Origin: an uncultured Acidimicrobiaceae bacterium
GTDB lineage: Bacteria > Actinomycetota > Acidimicrobiia > Acidimicrobiales > RAAP-2
NCBI GenBank assembly: GCA_963817005.1
Contig: CAWFMN010000004.1
Location: 1,125,358-1,189,357, forward strand
Length of the DNA: 64,000 nt
Reading direction: 5' to 3'
The first letter of the stretch is position 1. Each line of letters begins with the position of its first letter. Under the pieces are notes generated by a model. It saw only the letters and a program-made list of their open reading frames with translations, searched no databases and was not told the DNA's origin. Position numbers and translations under genes: made by a program. Below are positions 35,150 through 61,854 of the stretch, in pieces.

Positions 35150-35965
35150 TCAGTGATAGACCACGGGCGCGTCGAAGGCGGCCCGTCGGGACGCCCGCCG
35201 CAGGGCGGCCAGCACCGGATGACCGAGGAGCAGGACCAGCATGGCGTTGGTAACGGCCCGGGAGATGTCGAAGCCCAGGGACGTGGTCAGGTCGAAGAGG
35301 ATGAAGCTGTGCAGGTTGGCCAGGGGGCCGGCCCCGGGCGAGTACGAGAAACTGGTGGACGTGCCCGCGCCGAAGGGCCAGAACCACAGGTTGAGCAAGG
35401 TCCCGTAGAGCACGGCAGAGCCGGCGGCATAGCCGGCCAGCAACACGAGCTCGGCCCGCCCCTTGGCCCGGGGTAGGCATCCGGCCCCGAATCCCATCCA
35501 GGCCGCGCCGAACATCTGGAAGGGCAGCCACGGTCCGATGCCGCCGGTGATCAACGCCGAGACGACGATGGTCACCGCTCCGAGCACGAACCCGAAGCCA
35601 CGACCGAAGACCCGGCCGGCCGGGATCAACAGGAAGAACACCGGCTCGAATCCGGCCACGCCCGGGCTGGGTATGCGCAGGGCGGCGCCACAGGCGGCCA
35701 GGATCCCGAGCAGGGCGATGGCCTTGGCGTCCAAGGAGCCCTCGGCCAACTCCCCTATGACCACCGCCAGGAACAAGGGGAGGACGGCCACGAACAGCCA
35801 CGGGGCGTCGGCCGCGTGGGCCTGTCCTGCTCCGGCGTGGCCGTGGATCACCAGGGGCCAGCAGAACGCCACCATACCGATGAGCGACGTCACCGCCAGG
35901 AGGACGGATGCCCGCGGTCGGAGCCGGATGGTGGTCGGCCGGGCCACACGCGGGACGCCTACCAC
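35150..35965 (-). CDS. ECF transporter substrate-specific (S) component, polytopic membrane protein
   Basis: Six or seven hydrophobic helices (LLAVTSLIGMVAFCWPL, WLFVAVLPLFLAVVIG, FFLLIPAGRVFG, ITGGIGPWLPFQMFGAAWMG). Last gene of the ECF operon. The start is uncertain; GTG 35965 overlaps the ATPase stop. Confidence 0.65.
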   Translation of the reverse strand: MVGVPRVARPTTIRLRPRASVLLAVTSLIGMVAFCWPLVIHGHAGAGQAHAADAPWLFVAVLPLFLAVVIGELAEGSLDAKAIALLGILAACGAALRIPSPGVAGFEPVFFLLIPAGRVFGRGFGFVLGAVTIVVSALITGGIGPWLPFQMFGAAWMGFGAGCLPRAKGRAELVLLAGYAAGSAVLYGTLLNLWFWPFGAGTSTSFSYSPGAGPLANLHSFILFDLTTSLGFDISRAVTNAMLVLLLGHPVLAALRRASRRAAFDAPVVYH

Positions 35966-37578
35966 TGACCCCCCAGGGCCTGGCGGACCTCGTCCACCGT
36001 CAGCCATGGTTCCGGGGCCAGCACCTTGGCGACCTGCGGCGCGAACACCGGGGAGTGGCAGACCACGTCGCGGGCCGGTCCGTCTGCCACCACCTCGCCC
36101 TCGGCCAACACCACGGCACGGGTGGCCATCTGGGCCACCAGCTCCACGTCGTGGGTGGCCACGACGATGCAGTCCCCGTTGGCCGCCAGCTTCCGGACCA
36201 GCGTCACCAGCCGCTCCTTGCCGGAATAGTCGAGACCGCGGGTGGGCTCGTCCAAGAGGATCAGTGGGGGACGGGGAGCCAAGACGATGGCCAGGGCCAG
36301 GGCCAGACGCTGGCCTTCGGACAGGTCACGAGGGTGACGGTCCGAGGGGACCCCCGGCAGGACCTCCTCCAGCACGGCAGCGGTGGTCCCCGGTCGGAGG
36401 CCGGTCTCGTCGTCGGCCGTTGCACACTCGTCGGCCACCGATTCGCCGTAGAGCAGCATTCCGGCGTCCTGGGGCACCAGGCCGACCTTCGTGATCAGCT
36501 TCCGCGCCGGGAGGTCGGTGGGCCGGGTGCCGAGCACGGCGACCCGCCCCGCGGACGGCTTGCGCAGACCGGCCAGGTGGGCCAGGAGTGTGGACTTACC
36601 GGATCCGTTGCGACCCATCAGGGCCACCACCTCGCCGGCGCCCATCTCGAGGGAGACTCCGTCCAGGGCCAGCACGGGGCCGTACTCGACACGGACCCGC
36701 TCGGCCCGGGCCGCCGGTTCGCCGACCGGCCCGGTGGCCGTCTCCCGATCGGGCGCCGGCGCCCCGGCCAACCGCTGGCGAAGGGGACCCGACAAGCGCC
36801 GCGCGTCCCGCACAGACAGGGGCATCGGCGCCCACTCGGCCACGCGGGCCAGCTCCACAAGGGGTGGGGCCACCGGCGAGCTGGCCATGATGTCGGCTGT
36901 GGCCCCCACCACCAGGGCGGCCCCGTCTCCGGGCACGAGCACGACGCGGTCGGCAAACGGGATCACCCGCTCCAGGCGGTGCTCAGCCAATACCACGGTC
37001 ATCCCCACGTCGTGAACCAGCCGGGTCAGCGAGGCCAGCACCTCCTCTGCGGCGGCGGGGTCCAGCGCCGAGGTCGGTTCGTCCAGGACCAGCACCCGGG
37101 GCGAGGCGCTCAGCACCGCGCCGATGGCCACCCGTTGCTGCTGGCCTCCCGAGAGGGTGGCCAGCGGCCGGTTCCGGAGCTCGTGGAGCCCTAGCAGGTC
37201 GAGGGTGTCCTCGACCCGGCGACGCATGGCGGCGGGCGCGATGCCCAGGTTCTCCATGGTGTACGCCAGTTCGTCCTCGACGGTGTCGGTGACGAAGCTG
37301 GAGGCGGGGTTCTGGCCCACCACTCCGACCAGGTCGGCCAGCTCCCGCGGCGGATGGTCCCGGGTGGAGCGACCCTCGATGGTGATGTCTCCCGAGAGGT
37401 GGCCCCCGGTGAAGTGGGGCACGAGCCCGTTGATCGCCCGCAGCAGCGTGGTCTTGCCCGATCCGGTCTCCCCCACCACCAAGCAGAGCTCCCCCTCGTC
37501 GATGGTGAGGTCGACCCGGCGCAGCGTGGGTCGGGTGGCGTCGGCGTAGGTGAAGGTGACGTGGTCGAACCGGATCAT
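35959..37578 (-). CDS. ECF transporter ATPase, duplicated ABC domains (A-A fusion)
   Basis: Two Walker A motifs (GETGSGKTTL, GRNGSGKSTL), two signature motifs (LSGGQQQRV, LSEGQRLAL) and two Walker B motifs (VLVLDEPTS, LILLDEPTR). ATG 37578 overlaps the upstream stop as ATGA. Confidence 0.9.
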   Translation of the reverse strand: MIRFDHVTFTYADATRPTLRRVDLTIDEGELCLVVGETGSGKTTLLRAINGLVPHFTGGHLSGDITIEGRSTRDHPPRELADLVGVVGQNPASSFVTDTVEDELAYTMENLGIAPAAMRRRVEDTLDLLGLHELRNRPLATLSGGQQQRVAIGAVLSASPRVLVLDEPTSALDPAAAEEVLASLTRLVHDVGMTVVLAEHRLERVIPFADRVVLVPGDGAALVVGATADIMASSPVAPPLVELARVAEWAPMPLSVRDARRLSGPLRQRLAGAPAPDRETATGPVGEPAARAERVRVEYGPVLALDGVSLEMGAGEVVALMGRNGSGKSTLLAHLAGLRKPSAGRVAVLGTRPTDLPARKLITKVGLVPQDAGMLLYGESVADECATADDETGLRPGTTAAVLEEVLPGVPSDRHPRDLSEGQRLALALAIVLAPRPPLILLDEPTRGLDYSGKERLVTLVRKLAANGDCIVVATHDVELVAQMATRAVVLAEGEVVADGPARDVVCHSPVFAPQVAKVLAPEPWLTVDEVRQALGGQW

Positions 37579-38738
37579 GCCCGGCTCCCCTCGACCGGCT
37601 CGACGGTCACGACCGGCACGTCGGCGGTTCGATGGGGCCGTCTCGGGACGGCAAGGGCCACCGGCGCCGGTGCGGCGAGGGCCGGGACCGATCCGACCAG
37701 GATCCCGAGGACGGCCACCAGGGGGAGCTGGGGTGGATGCAGCGGAGTGACGGTGAACTGGAGCCCCGGCACCTCGAGGATCCCGGCGACGATGAGACTG
37801 GCCAGGGCCACGGCGCCCGACGCCACCACCAGCCACTCGGCCGTGCGCCAGACGTCAGGTCGGTACCGGGTGCGGTTGGTGCGCCGGCCGCCGACGGCCA
37901 TGCCCACGCCAACCAGCACGGCCCCGGCCGCCACGAAGGGCACGCCCCCGGCGGGCAGAGAGCCTGCGTCCAGTAGGCCGTACACGCCGACGAGCACGAG
38001 GAGTATCCCGCCGGCAGTCGAGGCACTACCCAGTCGGCGGGTGCCAACGGGCACCGCCACCCGCCGCCCGTAGCCACGGGCGTCCATGGAGGACGCCAGC
38101 TGCAGTGAGCGGTCGAGAGCGCTCTCCAGCACCGGGATGGCCATTCCGCGCAACCCGGCCACCCCTCGGGTCGGTCGACCCCGGAGCCGGCGGGCGTCCC
38201 GAACCCCGGCGATGGCCATCACCACTTCGGGGGCGAAGGCCAGCGAGACCGTCACGGCCACCCCGGCCTCGTAGAGGATCGCCGGTAGGCAGCGAAGGAG
38301 GCGGTAGGGGCTGGCCAGGGAGTTGGCCGCCCCGAAGCAGATCAGGATCACGGCCAGGCGCAGGCCCTCGACGGCCGATTGGATCACCGCCTCCGCCGTG
38401 ACCGGTCCCCCGATGCTGACGCCGGCCGCCCAGGAGGGCAAGGGGACCTGGGGAAGCGTGAACAGAGTGTGGCCGGGCAGGCGGTCCCCGAAGACGATCT
38501 GCACGACGACACGGACCACGATCACGACCATGCCCATCCGGAAGAAGAAGACGATCGAACGGGACCAGGGCGCAGCGGTACGGCGGGCCGACACCACGAA
38601 GGCGGCCACGGCGGCGACGAGGGACAGCAGGATCGGATTGGTCGTCCGGGTGGCTGCTCCGGCCAGGCAACCGGCCCACAGCCACCAGGCCGCCGGATGC
38701 AGGCTTCGACGCCCGGAGGGGGTGGACCGGCGGGTCAT
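37575..38738 (-). CDS. ECF transporter transmembrane (T) component, CbiQ/EcfT family
   Basis: Polytopic: PYRLLRCLPAILYEAGVAVTVSLAFAPE..ARRLRG and ALDRSLQLASSMDARGYG are the EcfT coupling-helix-type motifs. Confidence 0.8.
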   Translation of the reverse strand: MTRRSTPSGRRSLHPAAWWLWAGCLAGAATRTTNPILLSLVAAVAAFVVSARRTAAPWSRSIVFFFRMGMVVIVVRVVVQIVFGDRLPGHTLFTLPQVPLPSWAAGVSIGGPVTAEAVIQSAVEGLRLAVILICFGAANSLASPYRLLRCLPAILYEAGVAVTVSLAFAPEVVMAIAGVRDARRLRGRPTRGVAGLRGMAIPVLESALDRSLQLASSMDARGYGRRVAVPVGTRRLGSASTAGGILLVLVGVYGLLDAGSLPAGGVPFVAAGAVLVGVGMAVGGRRTNRTRYRPDVWRTAEWLVVASGAVALASLIVAGILEVPGLQFTVTPLHPPQLPLVAVLGILVGSVPALAAPAPVALAVPRRPHRTADVPVVTVEPVEGSRA

Positions 38739-39667
38739 TGCGGACGGGCGCGTCGTCGCCAGCCGAAGACGGCGCCAGCGGCCAGGGCCAGTACCAGCAG
38801 AGCTCCGAAGATCGCCGGCAGGGCACCCTCACCCGCGCCGGCACGATCGTCGGCGGCGGGCGTGGCCTTGAGCGACTGGGCCGGCAGACCCGAGCGCGAC
38901 GACCGGGTGGTGGGAGCAGTCGTCCCGCTGGCACCCCCGGTCCCGGCCGCCTGGGTCGTCGGCGAGGACGAGGCGGTGGTCGGATGGCCGGCGGCGGGAA
39001 CCGAGCTGCCCACCACCGACGAGCCGCCCGAGGCCTTGGGTGTCACGCTGCCGCCCGGCGAGCCTGTCGAGGGAGCCACCGTGGTGACCGGGGCGGCCGC
39101 GGGCGGGGCCGCGGTGGTCGGAGTCGAGTTCGCCGGCCCGCAGATGGCGGCGTAGCTGGGCGCCGGCAACGGATGGGGATCGTTCGGATTGGACTGCCCG
39201 TCGGTCTCGAAGCGCCATCCCTCGACATCACCCTCCTGTACGGCAGAGAACGCCCCGGTGCTGGCGTAGACCCAAGAGCCCGTGGTCCCGTGCCAGTAGG
39301 ACCAGTAGTCGTACCCCCCCGCCACCTGGGCACCACAGACGGTGGGCGCATTGCCCGGGAGGTTGTCGATCGAACACAGTAGGCCGGCGTTGTTGTAGAT
39401 GGGCTGGGCGTCGCCGCGCTGAGCGACGAATGCCCCCAACGCGGCGTAGCCGTTGTCCGTGGAGGGGACCTGAACGCATCCCACGACTGGTGCCCCCAGA
39501 CCGCCGAAGTCGACAACGAAGGCCACACTCACCTCGGTGGCAGCGCCGGCAGCATCCTTGAACGGCATCAGCGCATCCGGTCCGGCCGCCGCCAGGGCGA
39601 CCGACGCCGCCCCGACGAACAGAGTCCCGGAGATCAATTTCCGGACCGCCCCGGGGCCACTGGCCAT
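38735..39667 (-). CDS. secreted/anchored DUF4430-like protein with a long S/T/P/A-rich linker and C-terminal TM anchor
   Basis: N-terminal signal-like helix. Beta-domain pattern: YAALGAFVAQ..YDYWSYWHGTTGSWVYASTGAFSAVQEGDVEGWRF. About 110 aa of PTTAAPPAAAPVTT..SSSPTT follow, then ALPAIFGALLVLALAAGAVFGWRRR. Confidence 0.65.
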   Translation of the reverse strand: MASGPGAVRKLISGTLFVGAASVALAAAGPDALMPFKDAAGAATEVSVAFVVDFGGLGAPVVGCVQVPSTDNGYAALGAFVAQRGDAQPIYNNAGLLCSIDNLPGNAPTVCGAQVAGGYDYWSYWHGTTGSWVYASTGAFSAVQEGDVEGWRFETDGQSNPNDPHPLPAPSYAAICGPANSTPTTAAPPAAAPVTTVAPSTGSPGGSVTPKASGGSSVVGSSVPAAGHPTTASSSPTTQAAGTGGASGTTAPTTRSSRSGLPAQSLKATPAADDRAGAGEGALPAIFGALLVLALAAGAVFGWRRRARPQ

Positions 39668-41493
39668 CAGCCCACCCGGACCGTGCTGGTGGCTGCTCCC
39701 ACGATGGGGGCGTTGAGGTGGGAGCCGCCGTGGGAGCCCTCGAAGGTGGCGTCCCCGTAGGTGAAGATGCCTCCGTCCGAGGCCACCAGCCAGTAGCCCT
39801 GGCCGTCACCTGTCGACGCCATGCCCACGATGGGGGCGTTGAGGTGGGAGCCGCCGTGGGAGCCCTCGAAGGTGGCGTCCCCGTAGGTGAAGATGCCTCC
39901 GTCCGAGGCCACCAGCCAGTAGCCCTGGCCGTCACCTGTCGACGCCATGCCCACGATGGGGGCGTTGAGGTGGGAGCCGCCGTGGGAGCCCTCGAAGGTG
40001 GCGTCCCCGTAGGTGAAGATGCCTCCGTCCGAGGCCACCAGCCAGTAGCCCCCGCCGTCCGGTGTGCCGCTCATCGCCACGATGGGGGCGTTGAGGTGGG
40101 AGCCGCCGTGGGAGCCCTCGAAGGTGGCGTCCCCGTAGCTGAAGATGCCTCCGTCCGAGGCCACCAGCCAGTAGCCCTGGCCGTCACCTGTCGACGCCAT
40201 GCCCACGATGGGGGCGTTGAGGTGGGAGCCGCCGTGGGAGCCCTCGAAGGTGGCGTCCCCGTAGGTGAAGATGCCTCCGTCCGAGGCCACCAGCCAGTAG
40301 CCCCCGCCGTCCGGTGTGCCGCTCATCGCCACGATGGGGGCGTTGAGGTGGGAGCCGCCGTGGGAGCCCTCGAAGGTGGCGCTGCCGTAGGTGAACACGC
40401 CGCCGTCCGAGGCGGCCAGCCGGTACCCGCCGGCTATCTGAAACGGATCCACCACGCCGGCCACCGCCGGCACCGCCTGGAAGGTGGCGGTCAGGTCGGC
40501 CCCACCACCGAGCGAGAACTGGAAGGCCCCGGCGTCGGCTCCCGTGCTCAACTGGAAGGAAACCAGGGTGCTGACCGGGTCGCCCGACACTTTGACGAAC
40601 GGTGCCGCGGTCGGCGACTGGCCCAGCGCCACCAGCGCCTGGACGACCAGCGCCGTGGAGTCGGGATCCGTAGGTCCGGGGTGAGACGTCGGGTTGGCAT
40701 AGTAGGCCCATCCCCCGTCGCCCTGCTGCGTGGCTGTGAGGTAGCTCAACGCCGCGCTCTCGCTCGTGGACCCCAGGACCCCCTGGGCCACCAGGCCCTG
40801 TGCGGCCACGGCCGTCGAGTTGGTGTCCGCCCCGGCGAAGGCGTTCGGGTCACCGGTGCACGGGTTGAGAGCCACGTCGCTGGACCATCCGCCGTTGGAG
40901 CACTGCTGGCCCAATAGCCAGCTCTCCGCCGTCCCCAGCTGGGCGCTGCCGGTCACTCCGACCGCGGCGAGGGCGGACAGCGCCAGACCCTGCCGATAGG
41001 CGCCGTCGAAGGTGGGATCCTGCACGCCGAAGAGGCCCGTGGGCTGTTCGGTGGCCAGCAGCCGGCGGACCAGGTCGGTGCCACCGAACGAGTAGGGGTC
41101 GGCCCTCAGCGCATGGGCGTCGAGTATGAGCAACGCCAATTGGCTGGCACCGTCACTCCCCGAGACCGTCACATACTGGGACACCTGGGTGCTGAGGTAG
41201 ATCAGCGCGGCGTTGGCCCGGGGGAGGTCGGTGTCCGCGGCGGACAGCGCCAGGACGGTGTTGGCCGTAAAGGACAGGTTGGCCTGCCCGGGGGCGTTCC
41301 CGGGGATGTAACCGGACGGAGTCAACTGGTTGGCCAGCCACCCGGCGCCGGCACGGGCCGAGTCCGGCTGGGGGAACACAGTCGATGAGACGAGGGACGG
41401 GGCGGAGGCGCCGGCGATCATCGGTGCCGCAACGATCCCCGTCATGAGGCAGACCCCGAGGCCTGCCGTCGCCAGTAGGCGCTTGATGGACAT
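39667..41493 (-). CDS. secreted prenyltransferase/terpene-cyclase-like (alpha/alpha toroid) protein with six C-terminal 40-aa repeats
   Basis: Signal peptide: MSIKRLLATAGLGVCLMTGIVAAPMIAGASA. Toroid-type repeats: QQCSNGGWSS and QQGDGGWAYY. Then 6 x GYWLVASDGGIFTYGDATFEGSHGGSHLNAPIVGMASTGDGQ. The stop overlaps the next start (TGATG). Confidence 0.8.
   Translation of the reverse strand: MSIKRLLATAGLGVCLMTGIVAAPMIAGASAPSLVSSTVFPQPDSARAGAGWLANQLTPSGYIPGNAPGQANLSFTANTVLALSAADTDLPRANAALIYLSTQVSQYVTVSGSDGASQLALLILDAHALRADPYSFGGTDLVRRLLATEQPTGLFGVQDPTFDGAYRQGLALSALAAVGVTGSAQLGTAESWLLGQQCSNGGWSSDVALNPCTGDPNAFAGADTNSTAVAAQGLVAQGVLGSTSESAALSYLTATQQGDGGWAYYANPTSHPGPTDPDSTALVVQALVALGQSPTAAPFVKVSGDPVSTLVSFQLSTGADAGAFQFSLGGGADLTATFQAVPAVAGVVDPFQIAGGYRLAASDGGVFTYGSATFEGSHGGSHLNAPIVAMSGTPDGGGYWLVASDGGIFTYGDATFEGSHGGSHLNAPIVGMASTGDGQGYWLVASDGGIFSYGDATFEGSHGGSHLNAPIVAMSGTPDGGGYWLVASDGGIFTYGDATFEGSHGGSHLNAPIVGMASTGDGQGYWLVASDGGIFTYGDATFEGSHGGSHLNAPIVGMASTGDGQGYWLVASDGGIFTYGDATFEGSHGGSHLNAPIVGAATSTVRVG
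39694..40428 (-). repeat. six tandem 120-bp near-identical coding repeats (two alternating variants, order A-B-A-B-B-terminal)
   Basis: Near-identical DNA blocks visible at 39700-40420. Protein units differ only in the linker: VAMSGTPDGG versus VGMASTGDGQ. Confidence 0.95.
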
Positions 41494-41539
41494 TGGGGTG
41501 ATTCCTCACTTCCGGACGGTGACCCGGAAGCCTCATGGA

Positions 41540-41725
41540 ACCTCGACGGGTCCGTGACCAACCGAGTCCCTGCCGCATGTTCTCGACGGGATTGGACTCA
41601 ACGAACAGCCCATCGGTATCCCGGCTCGTGACGAGTGTCTCCACCCGCCACCCACGGTTGCGGACCAGCGCCGGATTTCGACCGGCTTCCCCGAAGTGCT
41701 GCTTGGTGCTGCAGACGGACCCTAC
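41540..41725 (-). promoter_or_regulatory. cobalamin (B12) riboswitch-like leader
   Basis: Minus-strand read 41692->41653: GGGGAAGCCGGTCGAAATCCGGCGCTGGTCCGCAACCGTG (compare the core GGGAA..GGTG..AATCC..GC.G..CCGC.AC.GT). B12-box-like GAGCCGGGATACC at 41627->41615. Hairpin CTTCCGG-N8-CCGGAAG (41530->41509) abuts the GAGGA RBS (41507->41503). Boundaries are approximate. Confidence 0.6.
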
Positions 41726-41844
41726 CAGGACGAGCGGACCCTGGCTCGTGGCCGCCTGGGTCGACCCGCTCACGACCCGGTCGACCCGGGGTCCGGCTCG
41801 ACGCCTCCCTGTGCCCGCCCGCGGCCGGCTCGCTCGGTGGCGGT

Positions 41845-53734: not shown

Positions 53735-56125
53735 TCAGAAGCCGAACGCCGTGCGCATATCGGCGGCGGTCGCCGCCAGCTGGAGCTCGGGCACCCCGGC
53801 CACGTCCTCTTCGGCCTTCAGCAGGCTGTAGTGGGTGAGGGCCACGGCCGACCGGGAGCCGGCGGAGACGTAGGGCGACATCACGATGGCGTCCACCGTG
53901 CTGGCCGTGTTGCCACTGCCCGACCCTTCGTCCCAGGCGATGACCACGGTCAGGCGGCCCGACCGGTAGTCGGGCCCGGCGGTGATCAGCGGGATCCACT
54001 GGCTCAGCCACGCGTCGCCCTGGGCGACGGTGCCGTCGTGCATGTCGTCGATGAGGTTCGGGGTCACCGTGGTGATGGTGGGCAGCGTCCCGGCCCGGAG
54101 GTCATCGAGGAGGCTGCCACCGGCGGTGGTGCCGAGGGGCACGTCGTCGGTGGCGCAGGACGCGCCGAGGTCGGTGTAGTAGACGGCCGGATTGTGACGG
54201 CTCACGTACTCGCCGCTGTTCGACCGCTGGCAGGCGTTCGGCATCGACTCGGCGTAGCTCTTCCACCGCGATGGGCCCACTTGGTCGTAGAGGTTCTCGT
54301 TGCCTGTCGTGCAACTGCTGGCCTGGCAGTCGCTGTTCCACGGCGAGCTGGCATAGCTGAGGCCGGAGGTGGCAGCCAGGTAGTTGGGGAGGCTCGGATG
54401 GGTCAGCGCCTGATAGTTGGTGGCCAGGCCGCAGGCCGACGCGTAGGTGCTGATGTGGGGGGCGGCCGACGGGGTGATGGCGCTCGAGCTGTGGTTCTCC
54501 TCCCAGATGACCATCATCTTGGACGTGGTTGGCGGGCCCGACGCCGTGCCGCAGTAGGCACTGGCCGATCCGGGCTGCGTCGTCGTGGTGGTGGTCGTGG
54601 TGGGTGGGTTCGTGGTGGGGACCGGGGTGGTGGTCGTGGTCGGTGGCGGCGTGGTGGTGATCGCGGGAGTACCCGATCCCGGCGTGGTGTACTCGAGGGT
54701 GAGCACCGGGGCGTTGGAGGTGCCGACACCGGCGAACCGCTCGACCACCCCCGGCGTGGTGAACGACAGGACCAGGCTGATCGGAGACGCGGCGCTCAGG
54801 CCGGTCAGCGGGATGGTCAGGGGGACGTTGGCCGCCGGGACGGTCGACGTGCCCAGCACGGCGCCCGTGCGTGGCGGCTGGGTGGCCCACGTCACGCCGG
54901 AGTGATCGAACGGCCCCTCGCTGCCCACCACGAACGACCCGCCGCGCCCCGACAACGGCACGAGGGTCAGGGAGGCGTTCAGGATCGTGGCTCCGCTGGG
55001 CACCACCGGGGTAAAGTCGAGCAGGGCCCGGTAGGCCCGGAACGAGGCGATGAGCGGGTCGGCTCCGTCGTAGTTGGCGGTCGGCGCACCGGCCCAGACG
55101 TAGGTGCCGGCGGTGGCCACACCGGAGATGGTGACGGGTGCCGAGGAGGAGGTGCCGGGGGTGGTGGGGGTCGGCGCCGGCCCTCCCGAGCCCCCGCCGG
55201 ACGGAGACGTCGGGGTGGGAACCTCGGCGTGCAGCACATCGAGGTAGCTCCCGTACCCGCTGGCACTGGACCAGGCGGTCGCTGACTCGACCGCGGTACC
55301 TTCACCCCACTCGTTGAACGTCGTCACCAACTGCAGCGGCTCGTTGCTGGCCACCATGTCGTTCACGTTCCGGGCCCAGGTGCTCAGGTTCCGGGCCAGG
55401 CGCGGCGCGGGCTCCCCGCTCTTGTAGAACCCGGGCGAGATGGAAAAGGCGTACCCACCCTGGTGGTCCTCGGCGCTCGACGGTGCGTACTGGTGCCACG
55501 AGCTGGCGTCCGAGGCGCAGGCGGTGTAGCCGCTGAACACCTTGAGCACGGTGTAGAACCCCTCCGTGGCGTTGGCCTGGCTCCAGCGCTGGGCCATGCC
55601 ACAGGCATCGGCCGGGTCGGCGTAGACGAAGATGACCGGCTTGCCGTCGATGCTCAGGTAATTGGGATTGCCGGCGTAGCGGTCCTTGATGTAGCTCAGG
55701 TCGCTCTGGATCTGGCTCACGCTCGGATCCCCGTAGCCCTCCGGCTCGTAGTACAGCGACCACTTGAAGCCGGTGCCGGCTGCCGCGGCCAGCTCGGCCG
55801 GAACCAGGCTGTCCTCCTGGGATCCCTGGCCCCACCACGAGGAGATTCCTGCGTCGAGATGGCCGTACTGCATGGCGGCGATCTGCCGGGCGATCACCGC
55901 GGGATCGGACGACGAGTAGTAGCCGGCCGAGGGCTGGTAGTTGGTGAACGGATCGACGCCGGACTGGTTCCAGGCGTTCGGGTACCACGGGTAGTAGAAG
56001 GCGGCACGGACAACGGGTGTGGCCGCCTGCGGTGCCGGCGTGGGTACCGCCACCGCCACGGTCGCCACCACCAGGACAGCGGCGACAAGAGCAATTGAAC
56101 GTTTGACGGTCACGAGTCTCAACAT
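53735..56125 (-). CDS. secreted three-domain protein: GH99-like domain, DNRLRE-type beta domain, phosphoesterase (AcpA/PLC-type) domain
   Basis: Signal/TM: SIALVAAVLVVATVAVAV. N-terminal: AAFYYPWYPNAWNQ..GYYSSSDPAVIARQIAAMQYGHLDAGISSWWG. Middle: TYVWAGAPTANYDG..ALLDF..ILNASLTLVP..SGVTWATQP. PT-rich linkers (TTTPPPTTTTTPVPTTNPPTTTTTTTT). C-terminal: MVIWEENHS, HPSLPNYLAATSG, RHNPAVYY, PNLIDDMHDG. Confidence 0.7.
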   Translation of the reverse strand: MLRLVTVKRSIALVAAVLVVATVAVAVPTPAPQAATPVVRAAFYYPWYPNAWNQSGVDPFTNYQPSAGYYSSSDPAVIARQIAAMQYGHLDAGISSWWGQGSQEDSLVPAELAAAAGTGFKWSLYYEPEGYGDPSVSQIQSDLSYIKDRYAGNPNYLSIDGKPVIFVYADPADACGMAQRWSQANATEGFYTVLKVFSGYTACASDASSWHQYAPSSAEDHQGGYAFSISPGFYKSGEPAPRLARNLSTWARNVNDMVASNEPLQLVTTFNEWGEGTAVESATAWSSASGYGSYLDVLHAEVPTPTSPSGGGSGGPAPTPTTPGTSSSAPVTISGVATAGTYVWAGAPTANYDGADPLIASFRAYRALLDFTPVVPSGATILNASLTLVPLSGRGGSFVVGSEGPFDHSGVTWATQPPRTGAVLGTSTVPAANVPLTIPLTGLSAASPISLVLSFTTPGVVERFAGVGTSNAPVLTLEYTTPGSGTPAITTTPPPTTTTTPVPTTNPPTTTTTTTTQPGSASAYCGTASGPPTTSKMMVIWEENHSSSAITPSAAPHISTYASACGLATNYQALTHPSLPNYLAATSGLSYASSPWNSDCQASSCTTGNENLYDQVGPSRWKSYAESMPNACQRSNSGEYVSRHNPAVYYTDLGASCATDDVPLGTTAGGSLLDDLRAGTLPTITTVTPNLIDDMHDGTVAQGDAWLSQWIPLITAGPDYRSGRLTVVIAWDEGSGSGNTASTVDAIVMSPYVSAGSRSAVALTHYSLLKAEEDVAGVPELQLAATAADMRTAFGF

Positions 56126-56386
56126 GGGTCCCCTCGTTTGATCGACCCATCAAGTATCGGCGGTCGGCACGGGTGCCTTGACCCGCGCCGGGCCCGAAAT
56201 CCGGACCAATCGCCCGTCAACGGCGGTGTTCACCAGCGGGAACGGAGGTCCCAGAAATTTCAGAATTTCTCCCCGTCCACCACGGTGGGCCACCAGAGAA
56301 CTACAGGCCGTGTTCGTTCGTGCCGATACCCCCAAGGTGGTCTCCACGGCCATCAGGGACAGACGGTGAAAGGAACGAGACAGGTC

Positions 56387-58058: not shown

Positions 58059-58715
58059 CCGGTCAATCTAGCCAGCCGGGCGGCGGCGGGACGGGGGTCG
58101 GTCGGCGGCCGAAAACCGCGCCGGGCTCAGGAGGCTTCGACGGTGAACCGCTCGACCGGATGCGAGCCGGCCGCCACGGTTGCCTGGCGTGGTGGCGAGC
58201 CCGCCTCGCTACCGGTCGATCCGGTTCGGACACGTACCCCGCCCAGGAGTCCAGGATCCGGAGCCCGTTGGCTCGCATTGAGTGGTGATTGCAACGCTAT
58301 CTGTGGGTTATTTGCCGCTCCAAGATAGATAGTGAGGCGACCTATTGCGCACCCAAGACGTGTGCCATAGTTTCGAAATTGACGGCAACGGGGGGCGATC
58401 AAAAGGGGCAGGGGTGCAGTCGTGGGGCTAGGGGCGTGGAGGTCGGATCCGTCCGACGTGGGGTATCTCGGGGGCACGGGCGTTGGTTCCGGCGCACCAT
58501 GACGGGGATGCCGTGCGCCTGACGGTGGACGCGGCCGACACATCCGGGGACCGCCGTCAGCCGGGCATCGTGGCTGACGGCGCGTCTTCCCTCTTCGGTC
58601 AAACCTCCTGGTCCGCCGGCTGACGACGAGCGTCGTCGTCGGTGTTCTCGTCGAACCATCAACAACATTGGCAGGGGTGTCCTCGATGGATGCTCGGTCT
58701 GAAAAGGGAGTATCC

Positions 58716-60626
58716 ATGCGAAGTTATCGAGCTTTGAAGATAGTGGCCCTCGCCGCTGCGGTGGCCGCCTCACTGGTGGGGACGGCGACTGCGGCCTCGG
58801 CCTCGGCCTCGACGTCTGTGTCGACGCCGACGGTGACGCTGTCCACCAACGCGCCCGGCGCCACGGCCACGTACGCCATCCAGTTCCGGGCCACGAGCGG
58901 GCTGACCCCCGGATCGAGCACCATCACCTTGAACACGGCGAGTGGTGCATTTCCTTCGGGATCGGCCAACTATTCGGTCGGGGCCCAGGGTCGAACGGCG
59001 GTCGTCACCGTCGCGCCCGGCTTCTTCGGCCCGGCCGTGCAGCTGACCGTGCCGACGCTGGGTACGTTGGCCGCGGTCTCCCCCAACGCCATCGTCACGG
59101 TGACGGTGACCGGAGTCGTCAACGCCGGCGCCGGCGCGTACTCCATGAGCGTCTCCACCTCCGATGACCAGGTGGCGGCAACCAGCGCCTCCTACACCAT
59201 CGGCACGGCCACCCAGCTGGTGGCCTCCGGCGGCAACAACCAGACCGCCGCTGTCGGTACGCAGTTCCTGACCCACCTCGGGGCCAGCTTGAAGGATGCC
59301 GCCAACGCGCCGGTCCTGCAGGCCGGCGTGCCGGTGACCTTCACCGCGCCGTCCGCCTGCGCCAGCGGTACCTTCCTCACCGGTGGCACCAACAGCACGA
59401 CGGTGAACACCACCGCCAGCGGGATCGCCACCGCGTCCTTCTTCACTGCCAACGGCATCGCCGGTACGTACACGGTGACGGCGACCACCGCCGGGCTCCC
59501 CGTCGCCACGTTCACGGAGACCAACAGCGGCACGTCGGCTCCCTGTGCTCCGGCCATCGGAACCGCCACCGCGGGTGACGGGAGCGCCACGGTGACCTGG
59601 TCGGCGCCGGCCTCCAACGGCAACTCGGCCATCACCGGCTACACGGTCACGGCCTCACCCGGGGGAGCCAGTGCCACCGCCGCCGGCTCGGCCACCTCGG
59701 TGGTCGTGCCCGGCCTGACCAACGGCACGGCCTACACGTTCAAGGTGACGGCCACCAACGGCGTGGGTCCGAGCGGTGTGTCGGCGGCATCGAACGCCGT
59801 CACCCCCGAACCCCCGGGTCCGGTCACGTCGCCATCCGACCACGGCTACTGGCTGGTGGGCGGGGACGGCGGCATCTTCACCTTCGGCTCGGCCAACTTC
59901 TGGGGGTCCACTGGATCCCTCAAGTTGAGCCGACCGGTCGTGGGCATTACCCCGACCCAGTCCCGCCAGGGCTACTGGCTGGATGCATCCGACGGCGGGA
60001 TCTTCGCCTTCGGCGACGCCGGCTTCTACGGCTCCATCCCCGGTCTGGGCATCCTCCCGGCCGGCTACCCGGGGGGCGGGCGCAAGCTCGCCGCACCGGT
60101 GGTGGGCATGGTGCCCTCGGCTGACGGCGGTGGGTACTTCATGGTGGCCGCCGACGGCGGGGTCTTCGCCTTCGGCGACGCAGTGTTCGCCGGATCGTGC
60201 CCGGCCATCGGAGGCTGTGCGGGTGCAGCCGTGGCCGTCATGCCCGACGCCACCGGCAACGGCTACTGGCTGGTGACTGCCACCGGCCACGTCTACGCCT
60301 TCGGTGACGCACCGGTGCTCGGGTCGCCGGGAGCGGTGAGCTCCCCGGTCACCTCGGCCGTCCGCACCCACGACGGGAACGGCTACTGGATCCTCCTGGC
60401 CAACGGCACCGTCCTCAACTTCGGGGATGCCGCCGGCCTCGGTGGTCCGGTGGGGCATGCCTCGGGTCTCAACCCGGCCACGGCCATCTTCGCCACTGCC
60501 ACCGGCGGCGGCTACTGGGTGGCCCTGGCCGACGGCTCGGTGTACTCCTACGGCGACGCTCCCTATGACGGCGGCATGAACGGCAACCACCTGAACGCCC
60601 CGATCATCGCGGGGACGGGCTGGTAG
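58716..60626 (+). CDS. secreted multidomain protein: Ig-like domains, Big_1-like domain, fibronectin type III domain, six diverged 40-aa GYW..DGG.F.FGDA repeats
   Basis: ATG 58716 follows AAGGGAG. Signal: MRSYRALKIVALAAAVAASLVGTATAASA. Big-like: GGNNQTAAVGTQF..VPVTFTAP..GIAGTYTVTATTAG. FN3: ATVTWSAPASNGNSAITGYTVTASP..TAYTFKVTATNGVG. Repeats: GYWLVGGDGGIFTFGSANFWGS, GYWLDASDGGIFAFGDAGFYGS, GYFMVAADGGVFAFGDAVFAGS and three more. Confidence 0.8.
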   Translation: MRSYRALKIVALAAAVAASLVGTATAASASASTSVSTPTVTLSTNAPGATATYAIQFRATSGLTPGSSTITLNTASGAFPSGSANYSVGAQGRTAVVTVAPGFFGPAVQLTVPTLGTLAAVSPNAIVTVTVTGVVNAGAGAYSMSVSTSDDQVAATSASYTIGTATQLVASGGNNQTAAVGTQFLTHLGASLKDAANAPVLQAGVPVTFTAPSACASGTFLTGGTNSTTVNTTASGIATASFFTANGIAGTYTVTATTAGLPVATFTETNSGTSAPCAPAIGTATAGDGSATVTWSAPASNGNSAITGYTVTASPGGASATAAGSATSVVVPGLTNGTAYTFKVTATNGVGPSGVSAASNAVTPEPPGPVTSPSDHGYWLVGGDGGIFTFGSANFWGSTGSLKLSRPVVGITPTQSRQGYWLDASDGGIFAFGDAGFYGSIPGLGILPAGYPGGGRKLAAPVVGMVPSADGGGYFMVAADGGVFAFGDAVFAGSCPAIGGCAGAAVAVMPDATGNGYWLVTATGHVYAFGDAPVLGSPGAVSSPVTSAVRTHDGNGYWILLANGTVLNFGDAAGLGGPVGHASGLNPATAIFATATGGGYWVALADGSVYSYGDAPYDGGMNGNHLNAPIIAGTGW

Positions 60627-60720: not shown

Positions 60721-61854
60721 TCACAGCGCGGTGTAGAGGGCGTCCATGAGGGCCCGGTTGCGGGAGCTCTGCCACCGGGGGATGACGTGGTTCATGACGT
60801 AGCCGAAGGCCACCCTTGCCTCGGGGTCGGCGTACCCGACGGCACCGCCGGTGCCGAAGTGGCCGAAGCTGCCCCGGTTGGGCCCGAACGGCCGACGGGC
60901 CGTGGTGGGCTTGAACCCCAGACCGAAGGTGACCTCCTCCCCCAGCACGGGGCAGTACCCCTCGGACTGGGGGGACGTGGCCTCGGCCAGCAGCTCGGCC
61001 GACAGGAGCCGGCCGGGCACGAGCAGCCCGTCGTACAGCCGGGCGATACCCCCGGCGGTGGCGTGACCGTTGGTGGAGGGGATCTCGGCCGCCCGCCACG
61101 CAGCCGTGTTGACGAGGCCCATCGAGGAGTAGCCCGGAGGGTTGAAGTAGCCGAGCATGGCCATCAGCTGGTCGCCGGCGAGGGCGGCGAAGTCGACCTC
61201 CTCGGTAGGGCCCGGCCCGGCCCAGATCACCTCGGCACAGCGATGCTGCTCGGCGGGAGGCACCCCGAACCAGACGTCGGCGTCCAGTGGATCCGCCGAC
61301 GCGTGCAACCGGGCCCCACAGGACTGCCCGCTGGCCCGCCGCACCACCTCACCCACCAGGTGTCCGTAGGTGTTGGTGTGGTACGCGTGACGGGTCCCCG
61401 GCTCCCACCAGGGGGCCGTGGCGGCCAGGGCGCCGGCCATCCGGCTCCAGTCCCAGAGGTCCTGGTCGGTCAGCGGTTCGCGGATGGCGGGCACCCCGGC
61501 GCGGTGACACAGGGCGTGCCGCAGGGTGGCACGTTCCTTTCCCGCGGCGCCGAACTCGGGCCACAGGGAGCTGACGGGGTCGTCCAGGCCCACACGGCCC
61601 TCCTCCACCAGCTGCAGGGCGAGCAGGGCCACCAGGGGCTTCCCCACCGAGTACACGTCCACCAGGGTGTCGGGTCGCCACGCTCGGCCGCGTGACTCAT
61701 CGGCCCAGCCCCCCACCAGGTCCACGACCACCCGGTGGTCGACCATGACGCAGACACCGGCTCCCACCTCCCCCCGGTCGAGGAAGTTACGCGCGAACTC
61801 CTCGGCCACACCGGTGAAGCGGGAGTCGCACCGCCCGGAGATGGGGACGTCCAC
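60721..61854 (-). CDS. serine hydrolase, beta-lactamase/EstB-like family
   Basis: VDVYSVGKPLVAL (SxxK), YHTNTYGHLVGEV, FGHFGTGGAVGYADPE; 377 aa. Confidence 0.8.
   Translation of the reverse strand: MDVPISGRCDSRFTGVAEEFARNFLDRGEVGAGVCVMVDHRVVVDLVGGWADESRGRAWRPDTLVDVYSVGKPLVALLALQLVEEGRVGLDDPVSSLWPEFGAAGKERATLRHALCHRAGVPAIREPLTDQDLWDWSRMAGALAATAPWWEPGTRHAYHTNTYGHLVGEVVRRASGQSCGARLHASADPLDADVWFGVPPAEQHRCAEVIWAGPGPTEEVDFAALAGDQLMAMLGYFNPPGYSSMGLVNTAAWRAAEIPSTNGHATAGGIARLYDGLLVPGRLLSAELLAEATSPQSEGYCPVLGEEVTFGLGFKPTTARRPFGPNRGSFGHFGTGGAVGYADPEARVAFGYVMNHVIPRWQSSRNRALMDALYTAL

Follow-up and report, generated by a model that had tools for sequence, protein, structure and literature searches.

What is the repeat in which two secreted proteins of an uncultured Acidimicrobiaceae bacterium end? 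In the window (the whole stretch of 64,000 nt analysed here), the protein encoded at 58716..60626 (+), which we call P1, and the protein encoded at 39667..41493 (−), which we call P2, both end in six GYW…DGG…F.(F/Y)GDA repeats of ~42 residues. We hypothesize that the repeats form a non-catalytic module of the propeller type which binds the cell wall and thereby keeps secreted proteins there or targets them to it, and we put the probability of this at roughly 65 %. We favour this explanation because the repeat fills the C-terminal slot of phage endolysins, is fused to peptidoglycan-acting enzymes of the hosts and stays conserved on unrelated secreted proteins. The features of the two genes are given below; P1 residues are numbered along the 652-amino-acid (aa) open reading frame (ORF).

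58668..60626, + strand: ORF of P1, opening with TTG at 58668, 652 aa, containing the P1 gene
58716..60626, + strand: P1 gene (signal peptide, Ala/Thr/Ser-rich region without assignment, fn3 domain, predicted six-blade propeller module)
58716..58805, + strand: predicted Sec signal peptide of P1 (MRSYRALKIVALAAAVAASLVGTATAASASA), read from the sequence, end approximate
59571..59789, + strand: fibronectin type III domain of P1, aa 302-374 (PF00041, E 4.7e-13)
59844..60623, + strand: propeller module of P1, six blades, mutually diverged
59844-59894, 59970-60020 and 60132-60182, + strand: P1 repeat cores 1-3 (motif scan)
60261-60311, 60381-60431 and 60510-60560, + strand: P1 repeat cores 4-6 (motif scan)
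60198..60218, + strand: CPAIGGC loop of P1 between blades 3 and 4, Cys pair conserved
60591..60623, + strand: closing strand LNAPIIAGTGW of P1, the first strand of a 'seventh' repeat, predicted to complete blade 1
39667..41493, − strand: P2 gene, 608 aa (signal peptide, SCO2321-like/squalene-cyclase-like toroid, predicted six-blade propeller module)
40465..41049, − strand: toroid region of P2, aa 149-343 (NF053823 SCO2321_fam, E 4.4e-46, below the cut-off of that model; SQHop_cyclase_C, 26.4 bits)
39670..40428, − strand: propeller module of P2, aa 356-608, six near-identical 42-aa blades and closing strand LNAPIVGAATS
39698-40425, − strand: tandem DNA array of P2, 126-bp unit, 5.8 copies, 93% matches

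The likely start codon of P1 is the ATG at 58716, which is preceded by AAGGGAG and yields a product of 636 aa. Both proteins were held to be secreted in a preliminary description of this DNA, and Sec-type N-termini can indeed be read from the sequences of P1 and P2. No transmembrane segment or LPXTG motif is visible in either sequence. The same description called P1 an Ig/Big/FN3 protein; Pfam recovered the fn3 domain and gave no confirmation of the Ig/Big part.

We scanned the sequences for the motif GYW-x3-6-G-x-(V/I/L)(F/Y/L)-x-(F/Y)-G(D/S)A. The P1 cores start at aa 393, 435, 489, 532, 572 and 615, with spacings of 42, 54, 43, 40 and 43 aa; the six cores of P2 lie at aa 356-566 and are spaced by exactly 42 aa. 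The motif was absent from 20,000 shuffles of the P1 module, and no further copy was found in any frame of the window beyond P1 and P2. Mean core identity was 48% within P1, 93% within P2 and 53% between the two proteins, and the whole modules were 44% identical (E 8e-60). These values agree with the earlier distinction between six diverged copies in P1 and six homogenised copies in P2. At the DNA level, units 2, 4 and 5 of P2 are 100% identical, which suggests that gene conversion or duplication took place recently. In P1, blades 4-6 have no DGG turn, and repeat 3 carries the Cys-containing loop that had been pointed out before (GSCPAIGGC). Both Cys are at least 90% conserved among 75 relatives and probably form a disulfide. 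Two module subtypes are visible at the sequence level: an asymmetric P1 type with conserved loops specific to individual blades, and a P2 type with near-identical blades. The C-terminus of P1 reads ...DGGMNGNHLNAPIIAGTGW and that of P2 ...EGSHGGSHLNAPIVGAATSTVRVG. A common ending had been claimed for the two proteins, and its shared part is present in both; the exact pattern proposed fits P2 only loosely.

We modelled each module separately with AlphaFold2 using an alignment of relatives, so that the structures described here are predicted, not solved. The mean predicted local distance difference test (pLDDT) value was 95.1 for P1 and 93.0 for P2, with predicted template modelling (pTM) scores of 0.91 and 0.88. 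The two models have the same topology, with 18 strands in six equal units and three strands per repeat. Within a blade, the strands PIVGMA, GYWLVA and GGIFTY are followed by a non-regular segment of 16 residues, GDAxFxGSxxGxxLNA, which leads to the next blade. The first unit of either model consists only of strands 2 and 3 of blade 1, and the last strand lies after the sixth repeat, at model aa 262-267 in P1 (LNAPIIAG) and 257-263 in P2 (LNAPIVGAA). In the models, the ring is closed by strand exchange, the terminal LNAPI(V/I) strand being the missing first strand of blade 1. This would explain why P1 and P2 end alike.

Foldseek searches against the PDB (both models) and against BFVD returned only beta-propellers, chiefly seven-bladed WD40 and RCC1 proteins, hundreds of them at a probability of 1.0. 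Template modelling (TM) scores were 0.45-0.65 and identities 6-19%. The fold class is therefore clear; there is no close solved relative, and none of the matches was informative on function. We also built a hidden Markov model of the blade from the twelve repeats of the window and applied it to 271 homologues. Exactly six repeats were found in 256 of them; a few had 10-12, which is consistent with double modules. Taken together, the confident models, the Foldseek matches and the repeat number support the six-bladed beta-propeller that had been suggested, and we consider it very probable that the modules of P1 and P2 adopt this closed fold.

The preliminary description was unable to name a Pfam family for the module, and no Pfam-A, NCBIfam or PDB sequence model covers it. 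Pfam-A produced a single sub-threshold match, to RCC1_2 in P1 (12.0 bits, E 0.2; cut-off 22), and none in P2. NCBIfam gave no match to the propeller module of either protein. When PDB sequences were searched by phmmer with a single module and with a 75-sequence profile, only chance matches were obtained (IMP dehydrogenase, E 0.04; SAM hydrolase, E 0.7). No Pfam or NCBIfam match to SLH, LysM, SH3b, CW_binding, PG_binding_1 or LGFP was found in P1 or P2. Literature searches on the repeat motif strings, on SCO2321 and on endolysins combined with propellers returned no description of the repeat, and no endolysin wall-binding domain with a beta-propeller fold was found there. Two outcomes had been set beforehand as speaking against a new propeller module, namely assignment to a characterised named family and the lack of a closed repeat fold; neither occurred.

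Could the module simply be a divergent member of the RCC1 or WD40 repeats, with no function specific to its clade? The Foldseek matches are propellers of these two types, and the turn motif SDGGxFxYGDA resembles the strand-turn motifs of WD40 and RCC1. Moreover, some relatives score 23-28 bits on RCC1_2 (PF13540), above the cut-off of 22. These scores, however, are sums of weak matches without any single significant stretch, and the alignment to the module covers only profile positions 13-25 of 30. For WD40 (PF00400), no Pfam match at E<=1 was found in P1 or P2; the WD40 proteins that gave the best Foldseek matches are seven-bladed and superpose with a root mean square deviation of 5-10 A, and no TM score exceeds 0.65. 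RCC1 propellers have seven blades of 51-68 aa, compared with six blades of 42 aa in the module. A homologue of 949 aa (P0226) carries a genuine N-terminal RCC1 propeller with five WGxNxxGQLG motifs and, in addition, seven C-terminal copies of the GYW…GDA repeat. RCC1 and GYW…GDA repeats are thus distinct modules that coexist in one protein, and seven-blade versions of the family exist. In an hhalign comparison, the module profile matched the RCC1 domain of P0226 with a probability of 0.6% (E 0.095). On the basis of this value and of the marginal Pfam scores we rejected membership in RCC1, and we regard it as very improbable that the module is an ordinary RCC1 or WD40 member.

An exhaustive HMMER search of 1.84 billion cluster representatives yielded 17,668 proteins at E<=1e-3, counted as clusters at 50% identity, and 6,651 at E<=1e-30. 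Species-representative genomes gave more than 587 matching stretches, of which we took the best 80. Almost all of these 80 came from metagenome-assembled genomes (MAGs) of Acidimicrobiales or Acidimicrobiaceae; the one cultured organism was Acidithrix ferrooxidans PY-F3. Several MAGs appeared two or three times among the 80, and four loci carried tandem paralogues. A plasmid collection contained no match to the module. Two module genes (L047, L069) lie on contigs that binning assigned to 'Candidatus Angelobacter sp.' and to a 'Thermoplasmata archaeon', and one protein combining Amidase_2 with the repeats is labelled Gemmatimonadales. These occurrences probably reflect mis-binned contigs or prophage carry-over, not true carriers outside the Actinomycetota.

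The module ends no more than 20 aa from the C-terminus in 257 of the 271 homologues. We compared the N-terminal parts of 221 relatives whose module is at least 65% identical to that of P1 over at least 240 aa, and detected N-terminal kinship only in an orthologue (P0121). Among the 97 long proteins in this set, 96 had no detectable N-terminal similarity to P1, with a module that was ~70% identical. Conservation at this level on unrelated N-terminal parts fits one common, conserved target. Partner domains in 66 random representatives were mainly Ig-like, namely Big_3_5 (17), Big_1 (6), TIG (6), fn3 (5), He_PIG (4) and PKD, and the enzymes among the partners were Peptidase_A4, GDSL lipase, Amidase_6/NlpC_P60 (in a protein with 12 repeats) and GSDH. 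The module is thus shuffled onto different N-terminal architectures, as had been proposed.

The repeat also occurs in phages. In IMG/VR, 51 loci on viral contigs carried 52 repeat-bearing ORFs, with two repeats in 28, three in 16, one in 2, six in 4 and eleven in 2. The 44 ORFs with two or three repeats encode 225-560 aa and have the repeats at the extreme C-terminus. Pfam identified Amidase_2 (N-acetylmuramoyl-L-alanine amidase) in 33 of the 52 ORFs, and all 33 belong to the 46 with one to three repeats. PHROGs places the viral proteins that combine Amidase_2 with the repeats in endolysin families. At the two loci that we examined (L117 and L100), the gene follows those for major tail, tape-measure, minor-tail and tail-fibre proteins, and an integrase gene lies downstream in L117. 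This arrangement points to temperate tailed phages with the gene at the lysis position. Homology between the bacterial and the viral repeats is clear: those of P2 are 52-56% identical to the repeats of endolysin L096 (E 8e-38), and those of P1 are 46% identical to the repeats of L092 (E 5e-28). In endolysins of phages that infect Gram-positive hosts, binding to the cell wall is the task of the domain that follows the catalytic domain on its C-terminal side.

Three contigs of 43-44% G+C (L093, L095, L097) encode proteins with three C-terminal repeats, so that the repeat is not confined to phages of high-G+C hosts. Pfam gave a weak Amidase_2 match for L097 (E 0.0027) and none for L093. Three further IMG/VR loci (L081, L082, L085) encode proteins of 1,025-1,067 aa with 6 or 11 repeats in mid-chain and no recognisable catalytic domain; in L085, PG_binding_1 follows the propeller. 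These may be tail-associated wall-binding proteins. Among GenBank phages there was a single match, in the metagenome-derived mangrove-soil phage GX15bay (L132, MK557849.1 42901-46815). The coding sequence, of 1,304 aa, is annotated as 'glycoside hydrolase family 25' and has no Pfam match at E<=0.01. It lies among tail genes, with the propeller near the C-terminus of its product, for which a role as tail or receptor-binding protein seems likelier than one as lysozyme.

The endolysin units run from strand 1 to strand 3 plus its tail. Since they lack the layout with an exchange strand, two or three blades cannot close a ring alone; presumably, three-blade and two-blade domains assemble as dimers or trimers into the six-blade ring. 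This need for oligomerisation raises the possibility that the module is a scaffold for protein-protein docking or oligomerisation, with a surface-layer or membrane partner or for endolysin multimerisation, and makes no direct contact with the wall. WD40-like propellers, the best structural matches, are typical platforms for protein interaction. Homologues of the P2 toroid can carry an Ig-like domain in the position of the module, and P2 adjoins the gene of a membrane-anchored SCO2322-like protein. At 80 genomic loci, however, no partner gene was conserved beside the module genes, and no neighbour recurred in more than 5 loci. Oligomerisation alone would also leave unexplained why the module is found in fusions with such a variety of wall enzymes and surface proteins. 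We therefore consider a pure docking or oligomerisation role quite unlikely.

We also searched a large protein database with endolysin L096. The matches comprised 37 proteins in which Amidase_2 is combined with two or three repeats at the C-terminus, and 83 proteins that matched through the repeats alone, 69 of which had six repeats. In the second group, Pfam detected YkuD L,D-transpeptidase (7), PG_binding_1 (6), Polysacc_deac_1 (5), CHAP (5), Amidase_3 (2), GH25 (2), Peptidase_M23 (2), 3D (2) and Phage_lysozyme2 (1). Source names included 'L,D-transpeptidase [Acidimicrobiia bacterium]' and 'M23 family metallopeptidase [Actinoplanes sp. LDG1-01]', the latter showing that the family reaches cultured Actinomycetes.

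These partners bear on another explanation, namely that the module acts in a general way as a lectin-like or carbohydrate-binding domain, which would direct secreted enzymes and adhesins to external substrates or to foreign surfaces (glycans of plants, fungi or bacteria) and not to the wall of its producer. Lectins of the beta-propeller type that have a binding site in each blade are well documented, and the near-identical blades of P2-type modules would suit multivalent binding. Adhesin-like Ig arrays, GDSL lipase, Peptidase_A4 and GSDH among the partners could be accommodated as well. The umbrella-toxin protein UmbA of Streptomyces carries six-bladed beta-propeller lectin domains of the families 6BP-1 to 6BP-4, which bind teichuronic acid, a glycopolymer of the cell wall, on target cells via pockets between blades (PMC13274773). 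Against a lectin of this kind, glycoside hydrolases for external polysaccharides are rare as partners, and peptidoglycan-acting enzymes and phage endolysins dominate among the enzyme partners. Moreover, the ~70% conservation of the asymmetric P1-type module on unrelated proteins favours one constant target. A lectin for foreign glycans thus appears unlikely. The binding module suggested earlier can be made more specific: its probable target is the type of cell wall that the producer itself has, and not just any glycan.

Several findings weigh against wall binding. P1-type modules mostly follow Ig-like arrays, not wall enzymes; considered with the lost DGG turn in P1 blades 4-6, this suggests that the P1 subtype may have another target. 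PG_binding_1 is also present in six L,D-transpeptidase-type proteins with the module, so that the propeller may bind something other than peptidoglycan or may not be a wall binder in these proteins. Of the 83 proteins matched only through the repeats, 35 carry the module elsewhere than at the C-terminus, and most of these 35 are enzyme fusions. The C-terminal domains of endolysins can also serve oligomerisation. Finally, among 120 homologues of the P2 toroid, 94 end without propeller or transmembrane segment, mostly in a He_PIG/TIG Ig-like domain, 24 have 3-6 repeats and 2 have a C-terminal transmembrane segment. Because most of them end anchorless, an anchor is evidently not obligatory for the toroid protein.

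If the module nevertheless binds the wall, its ligand in Acidimicrobiia and related Actinomycetota would be peptidoglycan or a polymer attached to the wall. In a bacterium that has no outer membrane, the secreted domain joined to the module would thereby be kept at the wall or targeted there. In P1, the module would display the fn3-containing stalk on the cell surface. For P2, wall binding suggests that the toroid, which is under the control of a B12 riboswitch, would be held at the wall beside its ECF-type (energy-coupling factor) transporter, encoded downstream. In phages of these hosts, the amidase endolysins would be targeted by a C-terminal domain made of two or three such blades.

P2 is the first gene of a likely operon (35150-41734, − strand) with a cobalamin riboswitch at its head. 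The match to the Cobalamin model bears out the earlier statement that P2 is riboswitch-controlled. Besides P2, the operon contains:

41595..41734, − strand: cobalamin riboswitch upstream of P2 (RF00174, 35.9 bits, E 1.9e-5)
38735..39667, − strand: SCO2322-like secreted protein with a C-terminal transmembrane segment (membrane-anchored), the gene after P2
37575..38738, − strand: CbiQ/EcfT-like subunit
35959..37836, − strand: fused double ECF ATPase
35150..36007, − strand: multi-pass membrane protein without family match

This set of genes resembles a system of the ECF type for taking up corrinoids or cobalt, which would include two accessory proteins outside the cell. One toroid homologue (P0270) is 99% identical to P2 and has 478 aa with a frame-shifted tail, and the 3-5 repeats of some toroid homologues may in part be due to assembly collapse of the near-identical 126-bp units. 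Propellers attached to the toroid (P2; homologues P0271-P0377) carry GSHGGS(H/P) in the loop between blades. His-containing loops make up 58% in these propellers and 21% in other modules, which mostly have GSTGxL; in P2, the loops place about 12 His on one face. These His may be lineage-specific or may be linked to the binding of metal or corrinoid.

Two neighbours of P1 were recorded. At 53735-56149 (−), a protein of 804 aa has Glyco_hydro_99-like and phosphoesterase-family regions, and a serine hydrolase of the beta-lactamase family is encoded at 60721-61854 (−), convergent with P1 and just downstream of it.

As far as we found, the repeats constitute a new and very large sequence family of known fold; the role proposed for it, wall targeting, is known too, and the two were not found tied together in the literature searched. 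Acidimicrobiia are abundant in soil, water and wastewater and are poorly cultured, and their means of keeping proteins at the cell surface are, to our knowledge, almost entirely uncharacterised. If the module binds the wall, naming this domain (about 17,700 clusters) would make thousands of 'hypothetical' or half-annotated proteins recognisable as wall-associated. For phages that infect uncultured actinobacteria, it would likewise establish targeting domains of a new type in endolysins. Fused to a fluorescent protein, the domain could provide a handle for labelling or capturing Acidimicrobiia cells, and with this family nature would offer a case in which the propeller can be made of a single chain or be assembled from short pieces. 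More tentatively, we propose that this could be the first described wall-binding domain of the propeller type, with a full six-blade ring in the hosts and endolysin fragments that become active only once the ring has assembled. It might then be the main non-covalent system of Acidimicrobiia for surface display and wall targeting, the part played in Firmicutes by SLH, CWB2 and choline-binding repeats. We put this wider proposal forward as a possibility on which we would not yet rely.

How does the module compare with known systems? Among the RCC1-type models (RCC1_2, PF13540; RCC1, PF00415), RCC1_2 is the one Pfam model with recurrent weak matches, and the pattern 'G.vy.wG.n' resembles 'GGIFtYGDA' of the module; blade number and blade length set the two apart. 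With WD40, which provided the best structural matches (TM 0.5-0.65), the module shares a repeat of ~42 aa and a Ser-Asp-Gly turn followed by a hydrophobic strand. It differs from WD40 in having six blades, where WD40 usually has seven, with three regular strands per blade in the models, and in being extracellular with a conserved Cys pair.

BtuG is a B12-binding beta-propeller surface protein of Bacteroides, and P2 similarly combines a beta-propeller with an uptake operon controlled by a cobalamin riboswitch. We nevertheless discarded the P2 propeller as a candidate binder of B12 or other corrinoids: the module also occurs on thousands of proteins that have nothing to do with B12, which makes such a role unlikely. 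Like the 6BP domains of UmbA, the module is actinobacterial, C-terminal, six-bladed, modular and exchangeable. The UmbA domains differ in that they are aimed at the walls of other species within a toxin particle. Neither the 50 top Foldseek matches of each model nor the PDB sequence searches included UmbA, tachylectin or the AAL/RSL lectins.

There is also a parallel in arrangement with the wall-binding domains of Gram-positive phage endolysins and of autolysins (SH3b, LysM, CW_7, choline-binding repeats, PG_binding_1, SLH, CWB2, LGFP). The module occupies the same C-terminal place after an amidase, and like these domains it is built from repeats, is appended to varied wall enzymes and surface proteins and occurs as several paralogues per genome. 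It differs from all of them in that it has no sequence match to any of these families and that its predicted fold is a beta-propeller.

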